DNA of 17,622 nucleotides. Source: an uncultured bacterium (GTDB lineage Bacteria > Hydrogenedentota > Hydrogenedentia > Hydrogenedentales > JAEUWI01). A program made the translations under genes and the position numbers. Within the stretch, counting starts at the first letter, position 1, and each line of letters begins with the position of its first letter. The notes under the pieces are model-generated. The model was given only the letters and a program-made list of their open reading frames with translations, did no database searches and had not been told where the DNA came from. The DNA is taken from assembly GCA_963977445.1 (NCBI GenBank), contig CAXBPH010000140.1, positions 1 through 17,622 of the forward strand. The letters run 5' to 3'. Shown in pieces: positions 1,578-17,422 of the stretch.

Positions 1578-1790
1578 GGATTGCACTGGGTTTGTGCAGT
1601 ATAGGTGCATGAATTAAGGGTATTCGTTACATCACGAAGCCCCCGAGGATTCCTTAGAAGATTGCTTAAGGCGCTCTCTGTGACCGTCAATTCCCTTAAA
1701 AATTCTCCATTCAGAATTCACCATTCCCAATTCGCCCCGCCGGATTACGCTGCACAACAAGATTGCGACCTATGGGATTGGCGGGTAGGG
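1529..1790 (+). repeat. Imperfect 51-bp direct repeat of the activator gene's 3' end (1529-1579 and 1740-1790)
   Basis: ccggaacacgctgcacaacaagatcgcggcgtatggtattggcgggtaggg vs ccggattacgctgcacaacaagattgcgacctatgggattggcgggtaggg; 45/51 identical, and both include the TAG stop. Confidence 0.9.
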
Positions 1791-1913
1791 GGTTCTGAAA
1801 GCAATCAGGCATCCCAATTTAGATTTTCTATACTGAACTAATCGACGTTGATACTTCGTGTCAGCCGAGATCTCACTAATCCCCTTCCTGTGTGGCGTAC
1901 GGAGAGTCATGAC

Positions 1914-1954
1914 TGCCCACAAATTGTGCACAGGAGTTGCGCAATTTGCGGGCA
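1914..1954. promoter_or_regulatory. Inverted repeat; candidate upstream activator sequence (enhancer) for a sigma54 bEBP
   Basis: TGCCCACAAATTGTGCA-caggagt-TGCGCAATTTGCGGGCA; arms match 15/17. It lies about 120-160 bp upstream of the -24/-12 element. Confidence 0.65.
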
Positions 1955-2073
1955 CCGGCTTCTCAAGAACAGTAGCGTAAAATTCGGCATGTATCAATCA
2001 AAACGAGATTATTTAACTAAGTTTACTTCCCACAGGCTTTACTGGAGGACGTCAAAACGAGGTGTTCGATACG

Positions 2074-2089
2074 TGGCACGTTGCTTGCT
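2074..2089 (+). promoter_or_regulatory. Sigma54 (RpoN) -24/-12 promoter
   Basis: TGGCACG-TTGC-TTGCT matches the consensus TGGCACG-N4-TTGC(A/T) exactly. It is 75 bp upstream of the next CDS and next to a bEBP gene. Confidence 0.85.
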
Positions 2090-2163
2090 TTGTATAACAC
2101 CAGGGCGAACGACAAGATGCGCCTTGTTGGTGAGGTAGTCACTTGAAAGGATTAAGCTAGATC

Positions 2164-4053
2164 ATGATACCTATGCCCATGAAACGAGTTATACATCTAG
2201 GGATTGGGGCGATTTTATTTTCCGGGTGTGCCGGAAAGACCCATCTGGATAAAGTTGCAACTAGTATAGCGAAATACGGTTCGATGACCGTGTCGGCCCC
2301 AATTCTCCTAGACGTGGAGCAGGCCGATACCTTCAGTTTCGACCTCGATAAGTCTGCCACGTTCTATTTTGACGCCCCCCGCGTGGAAGGCGCGGTGCGG
2401 CTATTTACACAGCGCTCGGTTGATATTCAAGTCGCCACGAAGATCCAACTGGAAGAGCTTGCCAGGGCCATAGCAACATTGAATTCCGCACCAACACCGG
2501 CTGCGGCGGACGCAGCAAAGAGTCAAATTACCAAAATAGCGACAACGCTGGGCGCACTGAACCAATTTGCCCCGGGCGGCGCAGGTGCGGCGGGGATCAT
2601 GGCGGACCCTGCTTTGCAGGCCGGCATGAGTTTTCTCATGGATTCCTTGGAGATGCAAGGAGAATCCGCCCAAGCGACCAAGGAAGCCGAAGGGGCCCCG
2701 CCCGAAACGCTGGAAGAAGCAACCGGCGGTGAGCAGGGGGAATTCTTGAGCGTGCTTCCCTTCTCATCTCGACCGGCTCAGGGGGTTCTGAATAGCGAGA
2801 AGTTCACCGACCCCTTGGAACGTTTTTCCGGTCAAGTCTCCATATCGCCGAGACAAGCCCTGAATCTGGCCGCAAATGACAAAATGACGCAGGATCTCTT
2901 GAAGATTCTTGCGAAACCGGAAGGGTTTGGGAACAACAAGAAAGTCTACTTCTGCATCATGACAGTGGCCTGTCAGCCAGGATACGTAACGCGCACAGGT
3001 TATGCCGGCGACGTGTTGGTCTCCATGGAGTATGGGCGTTCCATCGTCTCGGATGATTTGCAGGAGCTCTTCAAGGACTTATCCGGCCTCACCGTTCTTG
3101 CGGAAGGTATGGGGAAGTCAGGTCAAGCTGCCGAGGAGCTGAAACGTCTGGTGGACCGGTATAAGGCCCGTCTTGAAAAACTACCGGAAACAATCTCCGG
3201 AATGGACGGTGTTGAACCAAAGCAGGAGGCATCATACGATATTTTTTTATCGGAGCAATCGGCTCTCATCCAAGAGCTTGAACGTGAGTCAAGCGATAAA
3301 AGAGTCGAAGAAATAGCTAAGTTAGGTCTAAATTCGATTCCAGAACCGCCATCTTCGGACTTCGAGTCAATGGCGCGCCAGGCCTATGACCGTTCTATGT
3401 TCGAAGATCTTAGGTCCAATGATTCTATACCCACGGGCCAAAAGATCAATGAGGCAGCGATGCGAGTGCGTTCGAATCTGTATGCATCCTTCGGAGAATC
3501 CGTTTCCGCGCTACTCAAATCGTTGCGAGGGATGCTGGCTTCACCGACGGGCGGAGGGCTTGTTGCTAGTCAGACATGGCGGCAGAGAAACGTATCCTCT
3601 CATTCCAGCAATGTCCCGTCAATGTACGAATCAGACAAGAAAGAAGACGATTCGAACAGGAGCACTGCGAAAAAATTCTCCTACGAAGACTCATTCTCGC
3701 GTCCACTCGTCACGGGGGTTTACCCGATGGTAGATGGTCAAGTGCTGGACCTTCGTTCTAGCCTACGAGAGCAGATGGCGATGGCTTCCGCGTTGGCGTT
3801 GGCGGGATTCGGAGTTCAGTCGGAGTCCTTTCTAGACAAAGTCGAGCGAATCGAGCAGGATGCCCTCCGTCGGCAGTTCTTACAGTGCGAATGGCTACAA
3901 CTTCGGATTCCGCGTCGAGCCGCGGTTTGCGGCCTTGGACAACCCGGCATCTTCTCGCGCGCGCCCGGGGTATCGCTTGGAATCCATCCAATTTCCCGCG
4001 ATGGTCCTGATATTCGCGGACAAGCAGGCCCTCGCACCCGAAATCGGTGGTGA
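2164..4053 (+). CDS. Hypothetical lipoprotein, N-terminal part of a probably frameshifted ~920-aa gene
   Basis: Signal peptide MKRVIHLGIGAILFSG-C with a lipobox-like Cys (start at 2164, 2173 or 2179). The long ORF has helical/coiled segments. The last ~60 aa, after EQDA, look out-of-frame and overlap the next ORF by 194 bp. Confidence 0.7.
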   Translation: MIPMPMKRVIHLGIGAILFSGCAGKTHLDKVATSIAKYGSMTVSAPILLDVEQADTFSFDLDKSATFYFDAPRVEGAVRLFTQRSVDIQVATKIQLEELARAIATLNSAPTPAAADAAKSQITKIATTLGALNQFAPGGAGAAGIMADPALQAGMSFLMDSLEMQGESAQATKEAEGAPPETLEEATGGEQGEFLSVLPFSSRPAQGVLNSEKFTDPLERFSGQVSISPRQALNLAANDKMTQDLLKILAKPEGFGNNKKVYFCIMTVACQPGYVTRTGYAGDVLVSMEYGRSIVSDDLQELFKDLSGLTVLAEGMGKSGQAAEELKRLVDRYKARLEKLPETISGMDGVEPKQEASYDIFLSEQSALIQELERESSDKRVEEIAKLGLNSIPEPPSSDFESMARQAYDRSMFEDLRSNDSIPTGQKINEAAMRVRSNLYASFGESVSALLKSLRGMLASPTGGGLVASQTWRQRNVSSHSSNVPSMYESDKKEDDSNRSTAKKFSYEDSFSRPLVTGVYPMVDGQVLDLRSSLREQMAMASALALAGFGVQSESFLDKVERIEQDALRRQFLQCEWLQLRIPRRAAVCGLGQPGIFSRAPGVSLGIHPISRDGPDIRGQAGPRTRNRW

Positions 4054-4933
4054 TGGCGGCGAATATGACCACATTGTGTTCCATGCCGAACAGCGGTGGA
4101 CACCTATTGTCGATTATGGTAGCGCCAATCCATTTTCAGTTCGGGGTGTGCTCGACAAGAGGGCAAAAAATTTGTTCGTGAAGCCATACAAGTCCGAGCA
4201 TGCCATGCTAAAACGCGCCCAGTATCTCGATGATCTCAAATTCGCACTGGAAGACCCAGATTCCCCTCAAGCAGACGAGTATGCGGATTACATGATCGAT
4301 GGTGAAGAAGATGATGGCAGGAGGTTTGGCGAACTTGTCCATAGCACGCTATACCGCCGTCGGGCGGCCCTGGCGGCGACGGGGCTGGGTAGCAGCATTT
4401 TCGTGAAGCTTCCGTCCTATCCAAGTCCGAAGCGCAATGAATTTGAAGTGACAACGAAGGAAGCAGATTTTCGTGGCTGGAAGAATGCGGTCAGCGTATT
4501 TCCGATTCAGGGGAAGGGTTTTACGGAAAAGAATATCCTGGGAGCCGTGGTTGGCGGCCGAGATGCCAGTGTCAGAGTCTTAGGTGTTGGCGCGGCGGCC
4601 ATCGTGGTGGACAAGTGGGGAACCGACACGCAGACTGCGTCGCCAGTGCAGGTCCAGCTAATTACAAGCAAGGGTGTGGAATACCTGGGAACCGCAGCAT
4701 TTGATAGTGAGTTTAAGACTGAAAAGCCAGATGTGCCCCCCCGTGTAAATCTAGAACGAGACCTTTCTGGGCGTGTCACTGGAATTAGCACCCAAGGGAA
4801 GTGGAGTGATGCCACAACCCTGTTGGAAGCCTTGGACGGAGTCTTGAAGGCGGACAGGGCATATGACTCCTCGGGGCTCAACATGACGATATCCGGTGGG
4901 AAGCTCGACATATCGAGTGATCAGAATCCCTAA
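3860..4933 (+). CDS. Hypothetical protein, likely C-terminal continuation of the lipoprotein; contains an IPT/TIG-like beta-rich segment
   Basis: The frame is open from 3836 (after TAG at 3833-3835) and has no convincing RBS. The segment FPIQGKGFTEKNILGAVVGG...VQVQLITSKG resembles Ig-like IPT/TIG folds. Confidence 0.65.
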   Translation: MPSVGSSYSANGYNFGFRVEPRFAALDNPASSRARPGYRLESIQFPAMVLIFADKQALAPEIGGDGGEYDHIVFHAEQRWTPIVDYGSANPFSVRGVLDKRAKNLFVKPYKSEHAMLKRAQYLDDLKFALEDPDSPQADEYADYMIDGEEDDGRRFGELVHSTLYRRRAALAATGLGSSIFVKLPSYPSPKRNEFEVTTKEADFRGWKNAVSVFPIQGKGFTEKNILGAVVGGRDASVRVLGVGAAAIVVDKWGTDTQTASPVQVQLITSKGVEYLGTAAFDSEFKTEKPDVPPRVNLERDLSGRVTGISTQGKWSDATTLLEALDGVLKADRAYDSSGLNMTISGGKLDISSDQNP

Positions 4934-5090
4934 ACTCACAATCTGGAGTGATTAACTAATATTCGGATTTTCAAGCTTCATCGGACAGTGAGAAGAGAGC
5001 AAATGTCGAGCTGATGGAAGCACGACAGCTTGGCGAGAACGCCTGCCAATATCATTGAACTAAGTGACGGAATCGATAGGAGGAGAACAA

Positions 5091-5879
5091 ATGGCCGGTT
5101 CGATGGTCTATCGCACTAGGGCGGGAAGTGCAACAGGAGCAAATACGGTGTTGCTCATGTCGGCAATGGAGAAGATTCAATCTAGGCTTGATAACAACAG
5201 TTTTAATTGGGTCGCTGGACTTCACGGTCGTCCGGATTGGTACTGCTGGCATCATCAACGGAATCCACGCTTTCCAGACACACGGGCTCAACTGTTCCTT
5301 CCCTGGCACCGTGCCTACCTTCATCAGTTGGAACTGACACTGCAAGACAGCGAGGAGAACGCCGCCCTTACTTATTGGGACTGGACCAGAGACGATGAAA
5401 TACCTGAATCACACTCGCGACAAAATGTGGATTCAAAACCCAATCCACTCTACCGCTACCGCATGAGGCTGGCTGCCACTGCAATGCAGTCCGCAGTCAA
5501 CCGATACACGGTGCGGCGCTCTGGCATGGATAACTTCGTACGATTGCCCACTCGCGACGAAGTCGTCAGGCTACTAGAGGAGCAGGACTGGAGTCGGTTT
5601 TCCGATGCGCTTCAAGGATTACACGATGATGTGCATGTATGGGTTGGTGGCGACATGGGCAACCCGGCGTTTGCCGGATTCGATCCGGTATTCTACGCCC
5701 ATCACTGTATGATAGATCGCGTGTGGTTCCTGTGGCAGCAACGACATGGAAACGGAAACATACCGCCGTCTCTTCTGGACATGAAGATGGAACCATTTGC
5801 TCTAACCGTAAGAGATGTGATGGATGTGCAATCGTTGGGTTACGAATATGCAGCAACAGCAACGCCCCTCCCAGTCTAA
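5091..5879 (+). CDS. Tyrosinase family (type-3 binuclear copper) protein
   Basis: CuA site LHG...YCWHH...LFLPWHRAYL, YWDW, and CuB site LHDDVHVWVGGDM...AGFDPVFYAHHCMIDRVWFLWQ, with a C-terminal LGYEY motif. RBS AGGAGGAG precedes ATG 5091. Confidence 0.93.
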   Translation: MAGSMVYRTRAGSATGANTVLLMSAMEKIQSRLDNNSFNWVAGLHGRPDWYCWHHQRNPRFPDTRAQLFLPWHRAYLHQLELTLQDSEENAALTYWDWTRDDEIPESHSRQNVDSKPNPLYRYRMRLAATAMQSAVNRYTVRRSGMDNFVRLPTRDEVVRLLEEQDWSRFSDALQGLHDDVHVWVGGDMGNPAFAGFDPVFYAHHCMIDRVWFLWQQRHGNGNIPPSLLDMKMEPFALTVRDVMDVQSLGYEYAATATPLPV

Positions 5880-5890
5880 GGATCGCTACG

Positions 5891-6361
5891 ATGATTATAG
5901 AGAAACATGTTTTAGGCCCTATTCCACTACCCGGCAATGAGAACTTCGATGTCGCAGAACTTGAATTCTACGGCATCAATCATTTTCGTCCCAGCTATTC
6001 TACCCGGGTATTTCTTAACGACAAGAAGGTCAGTAAGGCAGTTTGCGATACCGATAGAGCAAGCTACGCGGGCGGTTTTTCCATCTTTGGGCATGCGACA
6101 TGTGCCGGTGATGTCGGACATTGTTGTGTGCCGTCCACGCAACGTCGCTTCGATACGCGGCCCTCGCATCCCTTGACCAAGGCTTTCAAGCGCATCGATA
6201 TAACGCAGGCCTTGATGCGAGTTATCGATGAAGGATCGGAGGAGCTCATAGTAACTGTTCTTGCTTCTTGCGAAGATGAGGAGTTTGAAGGCAAGAACTT
6301 GCTTGATTTACAGGGAGTGCAGTTGGTTACGCATGACTACTGTACGAGCGCGAGCTACTGA
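5891..6361 (+). CDS. Tyrosinase-associated protein resembling the tyrosinase/hemocyanin C-terminal beta-sandwich domain; His/Cys-rich
   Basis: ATG follows the tyrosinase stop after an 11-bp gap, with AAGGA upstream. Motifs SYSTRVFLN...YAGGFSIFGHATCAGDVGHCC. The ORF-track start at 5639 overlaps the tyrosinase and is unlikely. Confidence 0.7.
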   Translation: MIIEKHVLGPIPLPGNENFDVAELEFYGINHFRPSYSTRVFLNDKKVSKAVCDTDRASYAGGFSIFGHATCAGDVGHCCVPSTQRRFDTRPSHPLTKAFKRIDITQALMRVIDEGSEELIVTVLASCEDEEFEGKNLLDLQGVQLVTHDYCTSASY

Positions 6362-6420
6362 CAAAGTTCTACAAGGTTCTTGTTGCCCATTGAATTCAGC
6401 GACTACTTGAGGATGACAAC

Positions 6421-6903
6421 TTGACCGGTAACAACGAAGAACTATCGGGTCTCCGGAAAACGTGGAAATACAAGAGCGATTCTGAATCAGGCGCAATGGT
6501 CGAGGAAACTTCAATCGATAATGCTGACACAAAGAAATATAGCGTGTTGAGTAGCGGCCTTCTAGGTTTGCTTCCGACACTGGGAATTATCCTGATGCCA
6601 AAGTGTCCGGCATGTTTCGCAGGTTTGTTTGGTGTACTCGGCATTCTAGGGCTTTCCCTGTCGGACCTCTACACGACATTTGTGACGGTTCTCGTAACCG
6701 GTCTCATTATCACGGTTTTGTTTGCCTCGGTCGCTGGGGGCAGGGCTCAGGGGCTTCCGGTGTTCATGGGGCTCATTTTTTCTGTCGCCCTCATAATTGT
6801 CGGGCGGTTCGTGCTTTTCGAAGATGCACCAGTATACGCAGGCATGTTCATATTGTCTGGCGTAGGAACATGGAAAATGTGGTGCCGCGCGAAGAGATTT
6901 TGA
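6421..6903 (+). CDS. MerC-like small membrane protein with a CxxC motif
   Basis: About four hydrophobic helices and a PKCPAC motif in the first one. The start is uncertain (TTG 6421 or ATG 6496). Confidence 0.65.
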   Translation: MTGNNEELSGLRKTWKYKSDSESGAMVEETSIDNADTKKYSVLSSGLLGLLPTLGIILMPKCPACFAGLFGVLGILGLSLSDLYTTFVTVLVTGLIITVLFASVAGGRAQGLPVFMGLIFSVALIIVGRFVLFEDAPVYAGMFILSGVGTWKMWCRAKRF

Positions 6904-7002
6904 CAAATCAACAGGCGGATATCGAAGCTATTCAGCGGGAACTATGTGACGTAGTGGAGTCCTGTGAAGGGGTGGGGGTGCAGCCGAGTCGCAATAGCCA
7001 AC

Positions 7003-7854
7003 TCACTCATCGCCAGTCGCGCGGTCTGCAAGCTGTTCCAGCTCCCGCTTCTCCTTGATAGTCTGCTCTCTTGCTGACCGCTGGAAGTTCTCCAGCTTGA
7101 CTCGATTGAAGGCCTCGGGGTTGAGTTCACAATGATAGTAGTAATCTTGCATTCTCGCTTCCTTTTCGTTTTTCTCCTTTTCTCGGTCTGATTTTTCTTT
7201 GTACCCAAGCATCTTTCGAAGCTTCTCTACACCCACGTAGATCGAGTAGAGAGCACAGAGAGTTCCGAATAGAGGACTGGCAAGCCCAAATACGGCAATC
7301 GCCAATGGCACACCGGCGAGCCATGCTAGCGCGAGAAGCCAACCCACCCTCAAAGATCTGGACATTTCGGCTGTCTCCAGTTTCAGTTCTACGATGGTTG
7401 TAAATGGAATCCCATCGTAGATTTCAAGAAGTTGCCTCTGCGATATCGGTGGAATTGGCAAAGGAGGACTTTTGAAGCCCCGCCAGTGGAGCTTGAGGCC
7501 GTCATCTGTTGGGAGGCCCAAGAGGTAGGAACGAGCTGGGTCCCCATGTGCACGAACGGCGGTGTCTGTATCGTCAAAGGCCATGACATGAACTGGCACT
7601 GGATAGCGCTTCAACCAGTCTCGGCACTCATACTCCATAAAATCAACTATCTCAGCATCGCCTGGGAGGTCCACGAATGTCAGACTTAAGATTGCAAGTC
7701 CGTCGGTCGCACGCGCAGGTGTATATTCGATGAAGTAGGTATCCCGATTCTCTTTCAAGGACTGAAAGATGATCTTATTGTCAGCAGAAACTTCTGCTGA
7801 ATTGGTGGTTTCACCGGCTGGTTCTGGATTGGGGTCTGTGGGTTCCATATTCAC
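7003..7854 (-). CDS. Hypothetical membrane-anchored protein
   Basis: 283-aa ORF with a soluble N-terminal domain, a hydrophobic hairpin (VGWLLALAWLAGVPLAIAVFGLASPLFGTLCALYSIYVGV) and a charged helical tail. Start is GTG 7854 or ATG 7848. Confidence 0.75.
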   Translation of the reverse strand: MNMEPTDPNPEPAGETTNSAEVSADNKIIFQSLKENRDTYFIEYTPARATDGLAILSLTFVDLPGDAEIVDFMEYECRDWLKRYPVPVHVMAFDDTDTAVRAHGDPARSYLLGLPTDDGLKLHWRGFKSPPLPIPPISQRQLLEIYDGIPFTTIVELKLETAEMSRSLRVGWLLALAWLAGVPLAIAVFGLASPLFGTLCALYSIYVGVEKLRKMLGYKEKSDREKEKNEKEARMQDYYYHCELNPEAFNRVKLENFQRSAREQTIKEKRELEQLADRATGDE

Positions 7855-10668: not shown

Positions 10669-10901
10669 AGCCGCCCATTATATCGCGCCCGAGGGCGCAT
10701 TGTGAATGTTGAATGCGCGAAGCGTCCGCCGCAGGTGGAAGTGGATGGATCGAGACAGCGGGAAAAGGTGGTGTTTCAGGGATGGCAGGCTTCCAGAAAT
10801 GACTTGGGCAATTGTGCCAATCGGGATGTCATTCCCGCGCACGGGGCTGTTGATCTACTGTGCGGAGTACGAATAAATCCTACCAACCAGTATTTAGCGC
10901 C

Positions 10902-11343
10902 CACAGCGTCATTCCCGCGCAGGCGGGAATCCAGTAGGTATGCACGGTTTCTGTGACCGCGTTACTGGATCCCCGCGTTCGCGAGGATGACGGACCTCCA
11001 AAATCGACTTGAACAGTTGTGCGAACTGCGATGAAGCGAAGTAACTGTCGGGGTGCCACGGACAAGCCCCCAGGGCTTGCCCGTGCAGAAACGGAACTGG
11101 GCTATGGCTTTGCCGCAGAGTTTACCCACACGAAACACAGCGTCCTTCCCGCGCACGCGGGAAACCAGCGGGTATCCTCGGTTCCTGTGTTCGCGTTGCT
11201 GGATCCCCGCGTTCGCGAGGATGACGGACTGCGGGAGACGACTCGGGCAATTACGCAATCCGTGAAGGCGCGAAATAACCGTCGGGGTGCCACGGACAAG
11301 CCCCCAGGGCTTGCCCGTGCAGAAACGTGATGGGCTATGGCTT
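10902..11343. repeat. Two tandem 234-bp-period composite REP-like units, each an inverted REP pair plus a second hairpin family
   Basis: Units start at 10902 and 11136. CGTCATTCCCGCGCAGGCGGGAATCCAGTA (10907-10936) is inverted to TACTGGATCCCCGCGTTCGCGAGGATGACG (10963-10992). A 47-bp block is identical at 11047-11093 and 11281-11327. A partial extra REP lies at 10828-10846. Confidence 0.92.
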
Positions 11344-11486
11344 GAGGCAGGAAATCGTAGCTGGGGGCCTCTCAAAAACGACACCCACACGAATGACCCA
11401 ACGCCACCAGAGGCACTCGCAAACCCGGTCCCTTGGCTCGTCCCGCCCACAAGCCATTGTCCGATCAATATGCAAAAGATAAAAAT

Positions 11487-11557
11487 TTGAATCGAAATAC
11501 CAAAATTGCGTATATAATTAAATTCGAAGTTGCAATACACCTATCATTTCATATTCT
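11487..11557 (+). promoter_or_regulatory. AT-rich region with candidate sigma70 promoter(s) for the WYL gene
   Basis: TTGAAT (11487) with TATATAAT (11511-11518); alternatively TTGCAA (11530)-N16-TATTCT (11552). Confidence 0.45.
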
Positions 11558-11586: not shown

Positions 11587-12600
11587 ATGTTGGCTAAAAA
11601 GCGCAATCCAGACGCCACGGCGGCGATGAAGGCCCTGACTATTTATAGTCTGCTGATCTTCTCCGGCCGTCGTTACTCCCTCACTGAGCTCACCGAGTTG
11701 CTGTGCTGTTCCAAGCCGACCGTTACCCGGGCCATTCTGCAAATCGAAGTCACGCCCGGCCTCCACGTCAAAATTGATGTCGAAAAAGAGGGGCGGCAGC
11801 ACTATTACCGCGCTGTGCGCCCCGAAACCAAGCCCAACGTATCCCTCGAAGCCAAGGCCATTCAGGATCTCGCCCTCTGCCGCGATATGCTCACCCACCT
11901 GCTGCCGCCACAACTCCGGCAAGAAATCGGGGCCACCATCCACCAGACCACCGTCCTGCTCGACGACTTCGACGCACGGGAAGCGGCCCTCGCCCCCGTC
12001 ACCCTGGCCCTCGCCAAAGGTGCGGTGGATTACAGCGCCCATCAGGATATCCTCGCCACCGTCCTTGAAGGCCTGCGGCAACACCGCATCGTCGACGTGA
12101 CCTACACCGCACACCACCGCGCGGAGGGCAAGTCCATGGCCGTCGCCCCCCTCCAGTTGGTGACCCATCGCGACAGCCTCTACCTCAAGGCCCGCCGCGA
12201 GAAAGACCTGGGGCTGAAAAACGGATTCTACGACCCCACGCTGGCCATTCACCGCATCGAAACGGCCACCCTGTCCGACCGCGAGTTTACCCCGCCCAAG
12301 GCCAAGAAGAAAGACGCCTACAGCGTCTTCGGCTTCATGCCCGGGGAGCAATTCACGGTCGTCGTCGAGGCCGAAGCCCGCGTCGTGCCCTACCTGAAAG
12401 AACGCACCTGGAGCCACGATCAGGAATTTGAAGATTTAGAAGACGGCCGCGTGAAGCTGACCTTCTGCGCCACCAGTGAAGACGAAGTGGTGAGCTGGGT
12501 ACTGGGCTTCGCGGGGCAGATGGTGTTGGTGGAGCCGGTGGGGGTGAGGGAGAAGATCGGGAAGTGTGGGATGCTAACGGCAAATCAGCATCAAGAGTGA
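11587..12600 (+). CDS. WYL-domain transcriptional regulator (wHTH-WYL-WCX)
   Basis: N-terminal HTH YSLTELTELLCCSKPTVTRAI; WYL domain VDVTY...VAPLQLVTHRDSLYLKA...LAIHRIETATLSDREF; WCX domain DGRVKLTF...EVVSWVLGFAGQMVLVEP. ATG 11587 is preceded by GGGGA. Confidence 0.92.
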   Translation: MLAKKRNPDATAAMKALTIYSLLIFSGRRYSLTELTELLCCSKPTVTRAILQIEVTPGLHVKIDVEKEGRQHYYRAVRPETKPNVSLEAKAIQDLALCRDMLTHLLPPQLRQEIGATIHQTTVLLDDFDAREAALAPVTLALAKGAVDYSAHQDILATVLEGLRQHRIVDVTYTAHHRAEGKSMAVAPLQLVTHRDSLYLKARREKDLGLKNGFYDPTLAIHRIETATLSDREFTPPKAKKKDAYSVFGFMPGEQFTVVVEAEARVVPYLKERTWSHDQEFEDLEDGRVKLTFCATSEDEVVSWVLGFAGQMVLVEPVGVREKIGKCGMLTANQHQE

Positions 12601-12611
12601 ATGTAGACAAG

Positions 12612-12627
12612 ATGTTATATCTAACAT
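12612..12627. promoter_or_regulatory. Palindromic operator candidate between the WYL gene and the downstream cassette
   Basis: Perfect inverted repeat ATGTTA-TATC-TAACAT in a 44-bp AT-rich intergenic gap, next to a -35-like TAGACA (12604-12609). Confidence 0.45.
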
Positions 12628-12644
12628 TGTAGAGGACCAGCAAG

Positions 12645-13091
12645 ATGGAAATACCGCCCTCCGCCACAAATAAGGCAATAGAGTTACTACAAAATAATCC
12701 CAAAAAGGAACTTGCCAACATGGGTGCTGTTGTAAAAAGTAACCCAAAAGCTATCGGAATTCGAGAAAAGTGGGGCAGCATTGTGGCATACCTTACCTCT
12801 TCGGACGTGCCTCTGAGGAAGAGAGCGATAATACTCGGCGGGATATTATGGGTGATACTACCCGACCCAATTCTTGGACCAATAGATGATTTCGTGGTTT
12901 CTATGGCCTTACTTCCATGGCTTGATTCCGAGCTCAAACGGTTCGCGTCCGGCCATTATTCCAAAGCTCCCACATCTGCAACTGGGTCAACCGATGTAAG
13001 CCCCTCGGATTTGATTCCTTCCAACGCCACGACAGACAGACCCCAAGCGTACCCTTTCCTTATTAGCGACGAAGAATTGGAGCGTTACTAG
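12645..13091 (+). CDS. DUF1232/YkvA-like membrane protein
   Basis: VPLRKRAIILGGILWVILPDPILGPIDDFVV resembles the YkvA P-D-x-I-x-G-x-x-DD motif. GAGGA lies upstream, and there is a Ser/Thr-rich C-terminal tail. Confidence 0.75.
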   Translation: MEIPPSATNKAIELLQNNPKKELANMGAVVKSNPKAIGIREKWGSIVAYLTSSDVPLRKRAIILGGILWVILPDPILGPIDDFVVSMALLPWLDSELKRFASGHYSKAPTSATGSTDVSPSDLIPSNATTDRPQAYPFLISDEELERY

Positions 13092-13092
13092 A

Positions 13093-14823
13093 ATGAGTAT
13101 ACTATTGGATAAGCGCATTGAAATATCCTTCAGAAAAGCGGATTCTATTGCAGCAATCGGCTCCGACTGGGGCATAAATATTTCTGATAGAATCGCGATG
13201 CTCCGCAAAAGAATAGAAAGACCGGAATTCAAGTTAGCCATTGTCGGTCGATTCAAAACGGGTAAATCCACGCTCATCAATGCAATGTTGGGGGAGGAGA
13301 TATTACCATACGACGTTTTGCCCTGCAGTGCATGTGAGGTATACATCCGAAATGGGCCCTCTCAAGCGCTTCGAATTGAAGCCGCAGACGGCACTCTACA
13401 GAGTGCTCCCATCACCTCCTTGAATCAGCATGTCGCTGTCGGCGGTTCAGAACTTGCCAGGCGTGCGGAGCTTGAAGTCCCCAGCGAATTTCTGGAAAGG
13501 GGCATTTGTCTCATAGATACACCTGGTTTTGATGACGTGGACCAGACACGAAGTGAAGTCGTCTACAGCGTATTGCCTGACGCTGACGCAGTTATCATGG
13601 TATTCGACGCGACGGCGATAGGAAGCACGGAAGAACAGTTTCTTCGGGAGCGAGTGTTCAAGTCAACGCTCTCTCGATACATCTTCGTGCTCAACAAGAT
13701 CGATTTGATCGACGAATCTGATCGCGATGAAGTAGTTCAATACCTTCGCAGCTTACTTAGCCCACATGTACCCGTACCACTGATCGTTTGCCTGTCGGCT
13801 CAGACGCATTTGCAGGGAATCGGCTCACCTATACCTGCGGCGAAAAATGCTGATAGGTCCGAAGGTTTTTCCTACCGAGGCGTTGAGGGCCTTGTGTCGT
13901 TGATTAATACAGAAATTATGGGTAAGAGCGAAGAGATTATGGCTCGGGTGCTAGATTCCGAAATTCTTGGTATGAAGGAATCGCTCGCTGACCAGTTTGC
14001 CATGCTGAAAGACAGTATCGTTCGTAGCGACGAAGAGATCAGTCATAAAGTTACGCAAATTCAGGTCCAGTACAAGGAACTCGAAGGCGCTGCGGCTCGT
14101 GAGGAAGAACAGTCGCTCCACGAATTGGAAGACATACTTAATGGTTCTCAGCAGCGACTGATGGGATTTGTCTCAAAATACAAACTCGCACTCTATGACA
14201 ACATTATTAATGCTGATGCCGCGTCGCTTAGGAGGCCGGGTATGATGGAGCGTTGTATTGAAAAACAGTTCAAAGACTGGCTGGAAAATGAAGCTTCGCT
14301 GCTGGAGAACAAATTGACCGAAGTCTTTCACGAGTTTGACCGTCGAATGCATCCTCACCAGCTTAACTGCATTTCTCAATATGGGCAAGGCGATCTTGCG
14401 ATGGAGAAAGCCAATATTCAGGATGATGCCATCATGCCAGCACTCATGCTCGGTGGCTGGCTGGTTCTAGGGTGGACAAACTTCATTGTGCTTGCGGCTG
14501 CGTCCCATTTTGGCGGCGATTTCATAAAACAACAGCTTGCGCAACTCATAAATAACGAGGATGGACAAAAACATGAGTACGCACAACGTGTCACAGAGAG
14601 TCTACCCGCACTAGGCGACAAACTTTTCGAATCTATAGCGCAAAAAATCAGCGACGAATTCAAGCAACGTCTTGGAGCTCGAACACGGGAGCCCTTGGAG
14701 CAACTGGAAGCCCAAAAAAAACTTCTGAAGCATGCAAGAGTAGCCTCTGGCGAACGAAAGATTACACAGGAAGCCAAGTTAGAAAAACTGAACAAAGACA
14801 TCGAGCGTTTGGCAACCGTGTGA
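13093..14823 (+). CDS. Bacterial dynamin-like GTPase (DLP), copy 1
   Basis: G1 VGRFKTGKSTLINAMLG, G2 region LPCSA, G3 IDTPG, G4 FVLNKID, a long helical trunk, and a short hydrophobic paddle IMPALMLGGWLVLGWTNFIVLAAA. Confidence 0.92.
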   Translation: MSILLDKRIEISFRKADSIAAIGSDWGINISDRIAMLRKRIERPEFKLAIVGRFKTGKSTLINAMLGEEILPYDVLPCSACEVYIRNGPSQALRIEAADGTLQSAPITSLNQHVAVGGSELARRAELEVPSEFLERGICLIDTPGFDDVDQTRSEVVYSVLPDADAVIMVFDATAIGSTEEQFLRERVFKSTLSRYIFVLNKIDLIDESDRDEVVQYLRSLLSPHVPVPLIVCLSAQTHLQGIGSPIPAAKNADRSEGFSYRGVEGLVSLINTEIMGKSEEIMARVLDSEILGMKESLADQFAMLKDSIVRSDEEISHKVTQIQVQYKELEGAAAREEEQSLHELEDILNGSQQRLMGFVSKYKLALYDNIINADAASLRRPGMMERCIEKQFKDWLENEASLLENKLTEVFHEFDRRMHPHQLNCISQYGQGDLAMEKANIQDDAIMPALMLGGWLVLGWTNFIVLAAASHFGGDFIKQQLAQLINNEDGQKHEYAQRVTESLPALGDKLFESIAQKISDEFKQRLGARTREPLEQLEAQKKLLKHARVASGERKITQEAKLEKLNKDIERLATV

Positions 14824-14851
14824 TTGCGCAGACAAAACCGGGAGAAATTGA

Positions 14852-16768
14852 ATGCTATTGAAGTGCTATGCAGAAGGTGTACGTGTCATACAAGACGCCG
14901 TTGCCCAGCTAATCCCCATACTGGACGATCTTGGCTTGAGCACCGAGGCTCAGAGTGTAAGTGCCAGCTTCGATTCGATGTCCGCGAATGAATTCAATAT
15001 TGTGATAGTCGGGCAACTCAAACGCGGAAAATCGACGCTAGTAAACGCACTTCTGAGGAAACCAAACCTCATGCCGGAGGGCGTTATACCGACAAGTTCC
15101 GCGATTGTACGTATCAGGAATGGAAAAAAAGAAGAGGCCGTAGTGCGATACCTCGACGGAGAGTCCGAGACCATAACGCTCGACTCCTTGGAGCAGTTCT
15201 GCGTCGAGAAGTACAATAAGAAGAACAAGAAAGGTGTTGCCAGCATTGACGTGGAGCTGATGCATCCATGGCTGGCCGGGGGGGCCCGAGTGATTGACAC
15301 CCCAGGGAATGGTTCCGCTGAGGCCCACCACGACGCTCTTGTTATGGATGCGATCCGTCAGGCCCACGTGGCGGTCTTCGTCTTTACTGCGGACAAGCCT
15401 ATCAGCGGTGGCGAGAAACGGCTCTTGGAAGAGATTAAGAATGTCGGCCCCCAGAAAATCTTGTTTGTGCTCAATATGAAAGACCGATTGTCCTCAGAGG
15501 ACGAGGTCCAGAGGGTGATTGAGCACAATAAGGGGGTCATCGCGAAAATGTCCGTTTTTCACGAATCGGAATACCTTGAGTTTATAGGTGTATCATCCCG
15601 ATTGGCAAATAGGAATATCGAGAACGGTGACGAGCCGGAGTGTTCTTCTGGATTTTTTGTATTGGAAAAGCGAATAGAGTCTATTGTCAATAGAACTTCG
15701 ATGGCGCTCTATTCAGTAGAGCTAATGACAAATCGATTGCTCGCTAGTACCAACCAAGTGGTTCAAGTAGTTCAGAGCCAAGAACAGCTTGCAGCCAAAA
15801 CGACAGAGGAATTGGATCGCCGTCTGTTGGAACTCGACGCCAAGGAAAAAGAGCTCCATGTGGGGCATGTCCAAATGCAAGACGATCTCAAGAAGACATG
15901 GAAGACTATCAAAAAAGAGGTAAAGGAAAAATTCCTGGAAAAGGATAAAAATCTAAAAAACTCGGTAGGTAGTCTAGAGAGCGCGGACTTCAAAGTGTTT
16001 AAAAAGAAATTGAAAAGCGAAGCTGAGGAGGCACAAGAAGCTCTTCAAAATAAGATTCCAGAGGAGGTAGGAAGGATTGTCAGTAACAAAATCGGACCTG
16101 CTTTGGAGAAGATTTACAAGAACCTTCAAAAAGAGCAGGAAGAAATTGACGAGGAATTTCTCGACGACTTGTTCGGAGATCGATCGTTTGATACCTCTGC
16201 CTCGACGAGTCCAGATTTGGGGCCCTTATTGGGGACGTTTGTATCCGCAGCAACTGGTGTTGGTCTCGGTGCTTGGTGGGCGAGTATGTACTTTTTCGCG
16301 CCGGGATTGTTTGCTTGGGTATCTGGGGGTATTTCTACTGCACTTTTCGGGGGCTTGACCTTTTCTGTTCCGCTTATATTTACTGGACTTGGTGCCATTC
16401 TTGCCGTTCTCGCCGTTCCCGGATTTCTCATATGGGGATGGAAAAAAAAGAAGGCGAAGCTTATTGATGATTTTGCGTCCGAGTACAAAAAGATGTTAAT
16501 TGACCTCAAAGACAGATTTGAGCAGACCATATATAGGATCGAAGTAAACTCCGATAAGGCGTTGATGGAATTGGCCAAGAAGCAACTTGAACCACATCGC
16601 CAAGCCATAGTTCTTGCCAAGGAGAAGAAAGCTCAACTGCATACGGCGGGTGGTGCCGACTACGAAGCAATTCTTGCTACAATCGAATCGTTACGTTTTA
16701 CGCTGACCACACTTTCTGCTCGGACTAAGGCTGAGCTACCAGATAGAATAAGCATTCCGCCATTGTGA
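14852..16768 (+). CDS. Bacterial dynamin-like GTPase (DLP), copy 2, with a long membrane segment
   Basis: G1 VGQLKRGKSTLVNALL, G2 region IPTSS, G3 IDTPG, G4 variant FVLNMKD, a coiled-coil trunk, and a ~70-aa Gly-rich hydrophobic stretch ending in WKKKK. RBS GGAG at 14841. Confidence 0.92.
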   Translation: MLLKCYAEGVRVIQDAVAQLIPILDDLGLSTEAQSVSASFDSMSANEFNIVIVGQLKRGKSTLVNALLRKPNLMPEGVIPTSSAIVRIRNGKKEEAVVRYLDGESETITLDSLEQFCVEKYNKKNKKGVASIDVELMHPWLAGGARVIDTPGNGSAEAHHDALVMDAIRQAHVAVFVFTADKPISGGEKRLLEEIKNVGPQKILFVLNMKDRLSSEDEVQRVIEHNKGVIAKMSVFHESEYLEFIGVSSRLANRNIENGDEPECSSGFFVLEKRIESIVNRTSMALYSVELMTNRLLASTNQVVQVVQSQEQLAAKTTEELDRRLLELDAKEKELHVGHVQMQDDLKKTWKTIKKEVKEKFLEKDKNLKNSVGSLESADFKVFKKKLKSEAEEAQEALQNKIPEEVGRIVSNKIGPALEKIYKNLQKEQEEIDEEFLDDLFGDRSFDTSASTSPDLGPLLGTFVSAATGVGLGAWWASMYFFAPGLFAWVSGGISTALFGGLTFSVPLIFTGLGAILAVLAVPGFLIWGWKKKKAKLIDDFASEYKKMLIDLKDRFEQTIYRIEVNSDKALMELAKKQLEPHRQAIVLAKEKKAQLHTAGGADYEAILATIESLRFTLTTLSARTKAELPDRISIPPL

Positions 16769-17029
16769 AATAGCGCTCTGGAATCTGTTCCGGTTAACTC
16801 CGTCAAACATGTCGGAGCAAGAACCTTTTCTCGGCAAAAATGCAATCAATTGGAGGTACGTTCGACTCCGTGGCGACCATAACGATTGGCAATATAGCAA
16901 GAGATACCTTTATAGGAAAAAACATCTAACAACCTCATCAGCTGGCACTAATATTTCCGCTTTTAAGGCACACTTCCGATTATGGAAAGTACAGGCCTGT
17001 TCATGTGGATACTCATAGGGAGAAGACAA

Positions 17030-17422
17030 ATGTGGGGTCAGAAAGCAATGGGAAAAGTCTTAGGCATGTCCTGCAGCGACAAGAGCCTGGCCTTTTTTAT
17101 TAATACGTTTTCGGGCTTGGATCGATATGGAAAAATATTGGGGTTGAGCTGTGACAATGCGAATCGAACGATATCTGCAAGGGTACTGCTTAAGGGAGAG
17201 ACGGAGCCAATATCCGTATGCATCGAAGAGTATGAAATGATCTACGAAACCGATTCGGCGCAATTTCTTGTGAAGTCTGCGGGCGCGGATCGCCAATGGG
17301 TAGATGTGCTATTACAGGACGCTGCCGTCGGAAAGAGCTGGCCAGTCCCAGAGAACGCGGTAGGCTTTCTGGAGGGTTTTCTCGGTCAAGCTGGTAGCTT
17401 CACTCATCTCGACCCCATATGA
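17030..17422 (+). CDS. Hypothetical protein (~130 aa)
   Basis: RBS AGGGAG before ATG 17030; protein-like alpha/beta sequence (YGKILGLSCDNANRTISARVLLKGETEPISVCIEEYE). Confidence 0.7.
   Translation: MWGQKAMGKVLGMSCSDKSLAFFINTFSGLDRYGKILGLSCDNANRTISARVLLKGETEPISVCIEEYEMIYETDSAQFLVKSAGADRQWVDVLLQDAAVGKSWPVPENAVGFLEGFLGQAGSFTHLDPI

Follow-up and report, generated by a model that had tools for sequence, protein, structure and literature searches.

This study concerns a 17,622-nucleotide stretch of contig CAXBPH010000140.1 (assembly GCA_963977445.1) from an uncultured bacterium of the Hydrogenedentota, hereafter called the window, and within it a group of four genes at positions 11587-16768 that encode a WYL-type regulator, a small protein, and two dynamin-like proteins (DLPs). 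Calling of open reading frames (ORFs) showed that the four genes are co-oriented on the + strand with intergenic gaps of 44, 1, and 28 bp, in full agreement with an initial annotation made from the letters alone. The first gene (11587..12600) encodes a 337-aa WYL-WCX regulator recognised by Pfam and PADLOC profiles; its frame is open from a TTG at 11530, and the ATG at 11587, which is preceded by GGGGGAC, is the likely start. An AT-rich gap of 44 bp (12601..12644, + strand) follows, containing an inverted repeat at 12612-12627 and the ribosome-binding site of the next gene. This gene (12645..13091) encodes a small protein of 148 aa (P0001 in our searches), which was characterised by its HMMER family, an AlphaFold2 (AF2) model, hydropathy, and a natural fusion protein, P0122. 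The last two genes encode the GTPases DLP1 (13093..14823, 576 aa) and DLP2 (14852..16768, 638 aa); both were identified by the Dynamin_N domain and by matches to Protein Data Bank (PDB) sequences, together with AF2 and Foldseek for DLP1 and the PADLOC LeoBC profile for DLP2. The small protein, which has a conserved C-terminal motif and is a candidate adaptor for dynamin, is the most valuable element of the locus.

Dynamin_N was found at residues 48-203 of DLP1 (7.7e-25) and at residues 50-209 of DLP2 (4.9e-21) by Pfam, and the P-loop GxxxxGKS and the DTPG motif were intact in both proteins. In an alignment of 34 DLP1 relatives (A1), G52, G57, K58, S59, D142, P144, and G145 were invariant. The G4 motif of DLP1 was the canonical NKID, whereas that of DLP2 (residues 208-211; 15473-15484) was NMKD and not N/TKxD, the lysine being moved by one position; judging from this motif, nucleotide binding by DLP2 may differ from the canonical mode. 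The two proteins were 31% identical to each other, with the similarity limited to the G domain. Against the PDB sequences, DLP1 matched Cj-DLP1 (2.6e-17), BDLP (2.1e-15), IniA (1.3e-11), and Cj-DLP2 (1.1e-10), and DLP2 matched BDLP (3.4e-16), Cj-DLP2 (1.3e-11), and IniA (7.7e-6).

The AF2 model of DLP1, built with the 34 aligned relatives, had a predicted local distance difference test score (pLDDT) of 79.1 and a predicted template-modelling score (pTM) of 0.62. It consisted of a G domain followed by long helices (263-575), which included a low-confidence stretch at 428-476, and the leading Foldseek matches were BDLP (7.9e-18), IniA (2.1e-16), and Cj-DLP1/2. The helical part of DLP2 was seen only through the full-length coverage of the PADLOC profile. 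By hydropathy, DLP1 has a short hydrophobic paddle (447-471), and in DLP2 the hydrophobic region is long and rich in glycine (about 481-531); an N-terminal hydrophobic segment was found in neither protein. DLP1 and DLP2 are BDLP/mitofusin-type bacterial dynamin-like proteins. The earlier identification of two full DLPs was borne out by Dynamin_N in both, by near end-to-end alignment to the PADLOC LeoA and LeoBC profiles, and by the BDLP/IniA-type model of DLP1. Bacterial DLPs have been reported to be mostly paired in operons (PMC6104087).

The small protein gave no Pfam match at E<=10 and no match to PADLOC, NCBIfam, or PHROGs profiles, and a word-indexed search with it returned only its own 123-aa form (1 match, 44 candidates). 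A HMMER search against 1.84 billion representative proteins yielded 20 proteins at E<=1e-3, including the 123-aa form from the window, eight of which were at <=1e-10. In the alignment of this family (A2, n=19), P73 and D81 were invariant and lay in a P-D-x-x-P-G-P-I-D-D loop flanked by hydrophobic helices. When the 19 relatives were compared with DUF1232 (PF06803), one of them, P0130, passed the gathering cut-off of 23 with 40.1 bits, six others gave sub-threshold matches (E 9e-4 to 0.36), and the remaining 12 gave none; the small protein itself reached P0130 at E=7.2e-4 among the 1.84 billion proteins. Because one family member passes the DUF1232 cut-off and six match below it, the small protein is, as far as these profiles indicate, a distant and transitive relative of DUF1232 and not a Pfam member. 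Its initial description as YkvA/DUF1232-like was thus retained as a remote relationship, whereas the window protein on its own has no Pfam match to place it there. In the Atlas, its own model aligned to a DUF1232 cluster with a template-modelling (TM) score of 0.61; the feature scores were below 0.9 and serve as leads only. The hydrophobic helix, the P-D-x-x-P-G-P-I-D-D loop, and the second helix resemble the DUF1232/YkvA core, from which the small protein differs in having additional helices at its N-terminus and a tail of the NP[F/L/I] type at its C-terminus.

In the AF2 model of the small protein (pLDDT 81), residues 5-51 form four short helices at the N-terminus, followed by a hydrophobic helical hairpin (57-71 and 79-101) around the sequence PDPILGPIDD, a disordered linker (102-141), and a short C-terminal helix; hydropathy peaked at 59-85. 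The 19 relatives and the pLDDT of 81 show that the small ORF is a real gene. Near the C-terminus, an aligned block carried NP[F/L/I] in 13 of the 19 members, NRF in two, and YPF in the window protein; the three members without such a motif were the most DUF1232-like ones. Conservation of a short motif within a diverged, disordered tail suggests a docking peptide. Foldseek comparison of the model with the PDB gave nothing at E<=0.001, and the A2 profile gave nothing below E=0.44 against the PDB sequences. An origin of the small protein from a DLP paddle was also considered and rejected, since hhalign of A2 against A1 returned a probability of 0.2%.

A link between the small protein and dynamin was found in P0122 (742 aa), a natural fusion in which the small domain lies N-terminal to a DLP1-like dynamin. 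The small domain of P0122 occupies residues 27-114 (38% identity, E=5.6e-6 among the 1.84 billion proteins) and is followed by a linker with an NPI-type motif, by Dynamin_N (209-351), and by the helical domain of a bacterial DLP. The dynamin part was nearer to DLP1 (81 bits, 5e-20) than to DLP2 (61 bits, 9e-14), in keeping with the arrangement of the window, in which 1 bp separates the small gene from that of DLP1. When DLP1 (A1) and the small protein (A2) were co-folded, the score was 0.35, compared with 0.00 for the best of three controls, which is weak support; the runs shared at least 34% of their contacts, and the pLDDT of the partner was at least 59. Of 157 solved complexes, 116 reached the mark used for a pass, as did two of 215 mismatched pairs, and scores of 0.60 or below comprised just 18 of the 157 solved complexes plus both of the passing mismatches. 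One natural fusion, tight gene coupling, and a weak co-fold pass thus partly support a partnership between the small protein and dynamin. The initial annotation had proposed a small DUF1232 membrane adaptor for the DLPs; the fusion and the DLP1 co-fold agree with this proposal, although the co-fold link falls in the weak band.

In the literature searched, no dedicated small partner of bacterial DLPs was found, nor any paper joining dynamin-like proteins with DUF1232 or bacterial dynamin-like proteins with WYL; the combination of YkvA and dynamin gave only an unrelated paper. The partner link is the new part of this locus, paired DLPs as such being known.

Pfam analysis of the regulator showed a WYL domain (residues 155-206, 1.3e-8) followed by a WCX domain (residues 256-324, 1.6e-12) in the ATG form, and the longer ORF from 11530 gave similar values (WYL 1.4e-8, WCX 1.9e-12). 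The N-terminus had a sole Pfam match, to MarR at E=0.15 (residues 31-50), and a winged helix-turn-helix (wHTH) was not called. Two PADLOC WYL profiles matched the regulator (9.9e-21 and 7.4e-13), and profile PDLC01457 spanned residues 32-336 of the longer ORF, which points to a putative N-terminal wHTH. Of the wHTH-WYL-WCX architecture originally assigned, the WYL and WCX domains were hence recovered by Pfam, whereas the wHTH is drawn from the PADLOC profile.

Among PDB sequences (E<=10), PafC at E=0.012 was the sole match of the regulator, and no match to the solved BrxR, CapW, or DriD chains was obtained. The window regulator resembles BrxR and CapW in having WYL and WCX domains and in lying co-oriented and directly upstream of candidate stress or defence cargo; the brxR gene is likewise said to be co-oriented and directly upstream of its cargo. 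It differs from them in the lack of a sequence match to solved BrxR/CapW and in a composition unlike that of its cargo. CapW-type WYL repressors have been described as sensors of single-stranded DNA (ssDNA) (PMC11662680), and diverse defence systems were reported to co-localise with WYL regulators (PMC9122601).

The 44-bp gap between the WYL gene and the small gene had a GC content of 0.364. It contained the inverted repeat ATGTTA-N4-TAACAT (12612-12627) with 6-bp arms, which may be an operator, and its predicted RNA fold was no better than that of shuffled sequences (z=0.88). No terminator-like site was listed in the gap by the promoter/terminator scan of the window, a scan that performed no better than on shuffles and is uninformative on transcription units. 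Control of the downstream genes by read-through or through the candidate operator is possible.

The GC content at third codon positions (GC3) was then compared along the window. It was 0.754 for the sigma-54 activator gene, 0.792 for mutS, and 0.781 for the WYL gene, and 0.477, 0.494, and 0.523 for the small protein, DLP1, and DLP2, respectively; the value for the downstream orf146 was 0.531. The small protein, DLP1, and DLP2 genes, which share this composition, are separated by 1 and 28 bp, and have GGAG and GGGAGA ribosome-binding sites, are supported as one tight unit, hereafter called the cassette. Because the GC3 break lies at the WYL stop codon, regulator and cargo have different histories and were not inherited as one cassette, contrary to the single four-gene cassette first envisaged (GC3 0.78 for WYL versus 0.48-0.52 for the cassette). 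The cassette looks imported and the WYL gene resident; alternatively, cargo was exchanged behind a fixed regulator. Since the same break separates regulator from cargo, the functional link between them is a positional one, and the case for WYL control of the cassette is weakened.

Relatives of the cassette proteins were few. The search with DLP1 gave 107 matches, of which only P0006-P0008 were full length, at 39-40% identity. The word-indexed search with DLP2 gave nine matches among 7998 candidates, and coverage other than of itself was at most 36%. A genome scan with the DLP1 alignment, using one genome per species, gave 183 pattern stretches that resolved into 21 loci, all of them distant and matching the G domain only (23-42% identity); a single weak WYL-like ORF was present among these loci (L016, 3.2e-6). 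In the plasmid collection, the 56 records matched by DLP1 were all less than 60% identical to it and each covered less than 80% of its length, and there was no match for the small protein or for the cassette DNA; two plasmid neighbourhoods were examined and contained no DUF1232-type neighbour. The phage collection gave no match for the small protein. To the extent that these collections indicate, the DLP subfamily of the cassette is rare. A region of the phage record MT836781.1 (7896-8456), an unannotated 8.8-kb 'Bacteriophage sp.' entry, was 33.5% identical to the G domain of DLP1 (E=5e-23) and was the sole phage match.

What the data show is how the genes are arranged, which domains they encode, the P0122 fusion, and the break in composition; the binding, membrane topology, regulation, and biological role described below are inferred. 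We tentatively propose, at somewhat less than even confidence, that the small protein, DLP1, and DLP2 form a three-gene operon that was acquired horizontally and stands behind a resident WYL-WCX regulator, with the following mechanism. DLP1 and DLP2 would associate as a heterotypic pair of dynamins, of the BDLP/Cj-DLP/IniA type, which would bind the membrane through the DLP1 paddle and the transmembrane-like region of DLP2, and GTP would drive tethering, sealing, or reshaping of the cytoplasmic membrane by the pair. The small protein would be a membrane-embedded partner of DLP1, with its DUF1232-like hydrophobic hairpin in the membrane and with a cytoplasmic helical head and an NP[F/L/I]-type tail (here YPF) that recruit or position DLP1. 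Acting in trans, it would thereby stand in for the N-terminal anchor present in cis in LeoC/LeoBC and long Mgm1; in P0122, the domain of the small protein is itself fused to dynamin. The WYL regulator probably gates transcription, either by read-through or via the inverted repeat in the gap, and expression would then respond to ssDNA arising from damage or phage replication. The likeliest role would be to protect the membrane when phages attack or the envelope is damaged, and a defence role of the cassette is plausible.

Several observations weigh against this proposal. Both DLPs have hydrophobic membrane elements of their own, and an extra anchor is not obviously required. The fusion is a single representative among 20 proteins, and a co-fold pass in the weak band is, according to the calibration, likelier to be false than true if the pairing was not already probable. 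Furthermore, none of the 2455 ORFs of the 21 loci matched the small-protein family (phmmer; A2 profile, E<=10). With regard to regulation, the GC3 drop from 0.78 to 0.48 falls exactly at the WYL stop codon, in the scan mentioned above neither the WYL gene nor the small gene is preceded by a listed + strand promoter, and the adjacency of the WYL gene and the cassette may be incidental. Finally, PADLOC recognised no other defence gene in the window; its remaining matches were generic AAA+ and helix-turn-helix matches to the sigma-54 activator and marginal P-loop matches to MutS.

A serious, if unlikely, alternative is that the locus is a divergent Eleos system (LeoA + LeoBC), in which the small gene would be a split-off N-terminal anchor and the WYL protein a BrxR/CapW-like regulator. 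The best PADLOC matches were indeed near full length and to Eleos components, namely LeoA for DLP1 (2e-19; LeoBC, 4.8e-16) and LeoBC for DLP2 (5.4e-26, residues 42-579; LeoA, 2e-23). However, the scores were low (68-90 bits), each DLP matched both profiles about equally, and the LeoBC alignments began at profile positions 64 and 69; the small protein matched no PADLOC Leo profile. With the NCBIfam LeoA/HP0731 model (NF041922), DLP1 scored 27.6 bits against a cut-off of 325 and DLP2 gave no match. In addition, no LeoA chain was present among the PDB sequence matches listed (34 for DLP1 and four for DLP2), and in the Foldseek ranks listed, BDLP, IniA, and Cj-DLP1/2 came first and no entry carried a LeoA description. 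Judged by the profile scores, the similarity of the DLPs to Eleos components does not go beyond that of the superfamily.

Eleos, a two-gene dynamin system that received this name later, was reported to protect B. subtilis against jumbo phages with both P-loops needed (10.1101/2022.05.11.491447), and to adjoin defence systems in 60% of cases while occurring in about 1% of genomes (10.1101/2022.05.11.491447; 10.1101/2022.12.12.520048); this activity, together with the reported co-localisation of WYL regulators with diverse defence systems (PMC9122601), agrees with an Eleos-type assignment. As described by Michie et al. (PMC4159319), LeoC has a membrane anchor ahead of its GTPase domain, like long Mgm1. 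The window thus shares with Eleos, including LeoABC of enterotoxigenic Escherichia coli, two adjacent DLP genes, and the reported pre-GTPase anchor of LeoC/LeoBC corresponds in position to the small domain of P0122. On the other hand, the DLPs of the window lack an N-terminal hydrophobic segment, the locus has an additional DUF1232-like gene and a WYL gene, and neighbouring defence genes were not seen. No mechanistic study was found in the literature on Eleos. The initial annotation did not recognise the combination as a named system; it was indeed not found in print, whereas its closest PADLOC relatives are the low-scoring Eleos components.

It is comparably doubtful that the locus is a general envelope-stress or membrane-repair dynamin module of the DynA, iniBAC, or Cj-DLP1/2 kind, having no phage link and with the WYL gene as an unrelated neighbour. 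The nearest solved relatives, Cj-DLP1/2, BDLP, and IniA, and the GC3 break that divides the WYL gene from the cassette are in line with such a module. Of the heterotypic pair Cj-DLP1/Cj-DLP2 of Campylobacter jejuni (PDB 5owv), Cj-DLP1 is the best PDB sequence match of DLP1 and Cj-DLP2 matches both window DLPs, whereas the third gene there is an HcpA-like beta-lactamase and the identity in Foldseek alignments is about 15-19%. The mycobacterial iniBAC operon is reported to combine an accessory gene and two DLPs with a dedicated, adjacent, stress-responsive regulator, IniR (PMC5760070). This layout is like that of the window, and IniA ranks high among the structural matches of DLP1; by contrast, IniR is described as a STAND-type ATPase and not a WYL protein, and IniB as highly variable in size and absent in M. 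smegmatis (PMC5760070). DynA of B. subtilis, reported as a two-headed, membrane-binding protein that delays phage lysis (PMC8844932, PMC12998192), would be a functional analogue of the DLP pair. In DynA, however, two DLPs are fused in one chain, no small partner was found in the literature searched, and DLP1 missed by far the NCBIfam cut-offs for DynA (69 bits versus 1600) and CrfC (50 versus 1146). A cassette that is apparently a recent import and very rare (three full-length DLP1 relatives among 107 matches) would also be unusual for a housekeeping repair function, and the co-oriented 44-bp junction without a terminator is compatible with co-transcription of the WYL gene and the cassette.

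A bolder form of the operon proposal appears improbable at present, namely that the small protein represents a new class of bacterial dynamin adaptors and that the three-gene module is a swappable anti-phage cargo that remodels membranes, is triggered by a WYL protein sensing ssDNA, and is distinct from Eleos. Here, a DUF1232-like membrane hairpin would be combined with a short linear motif, NP[F/L/I], at the C-terminus, to which the DLP would dock; such an arrangement would be the prokaryotic parallel to the membrane receptors and NPF-motif partners that dynamin-superfamily proteins have in eukaryotes. Release of membrane vesicles or other secretion-related remodelling, as proposed for LeoABC and IniA/IniC, would be a very improbable function of the module, because this view is by analogy with the reported drop of about 50% in vesicle release on leoA or leoB knock-out (PMC4159319) and the reported vesicle secretion mediated by mycobacterial DLPs (PMC10240201), and nothing in the window indicates secretion cargo.

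Other features of the window were also recorded. A gene for a sigma-54 enhancer-binding activator (3-1577), the N-terminal 200 residues of which match no family, lies just upstream of a perfect sigma-54 promoter consensus, TGGCAC-N5-TTGC (2074-2088, + strand). This promoter is about 75 bp upstream of a 629-aa ORF (2164-4053) of no recognised family, and the activator and this ORF may constitute a dedicated activator-operon pair. The 629-aa ORF overlaps a 357-aa ORF (3860-4933) by 194 bases in a different frame (3860-4053), and the latter may have a later start or reflect a frameshift. Both belong to a second lower-GC block (1605-7854), in which GC3 was 0.42-0.59 compared with 0.75-0.79 in the flanking activator and mutS genes. 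Except for a tyrosinase-domain protein (5064-5879, Pfam 4.1e-36), the ORFs of this block matched nothing in Pfam, PADLOC, NCBIfam, or PHROGs. With this block and the cassette, foreign-looking DNA is therefore present on both sides of mutS.

Between mutS and the WYL gene, a direct repeat of 192 nt was found in two copies (10902-11093 and 11136-11327; also 10828-10846), which were 83% identical, 234 bp apart, and carried palindromes of the ATTCCC-N8-GGGAA type; a 192-aa minus-strand ORF over these repeats (10962-11540) is probably spurious. Downstream of DLP2 by 213 bp, orf146 (16982-17422, + strand, 146 aa) has a composition like that of the cassette and is grouped by the Atlas with unnamed hypothetical clusters, mostly of Pseudomonadota (feature score 0.95, TM about 0.7); it showed no sign of belonging to the cassette. 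PHROGs gave nothing for the WYL protein or DLP2, as for the small protein, and neither an Rfam family nor a tRNA was detected in the window.

DLP pairs are common in bacteria. A partner that is separate at this locus and fused to dynamin elsewhere offers a concrete idea of how DLPs are recruited, open to testing by mutation, and would give a first functional context to one branch of the DUF1232 superfamily, which is uncharacterised. The break in composition downstream of the WYL gene, in turn, is a clean example with which to ask whether WYL regulators serve as fixed 'sockets' for exchangeable cargo.

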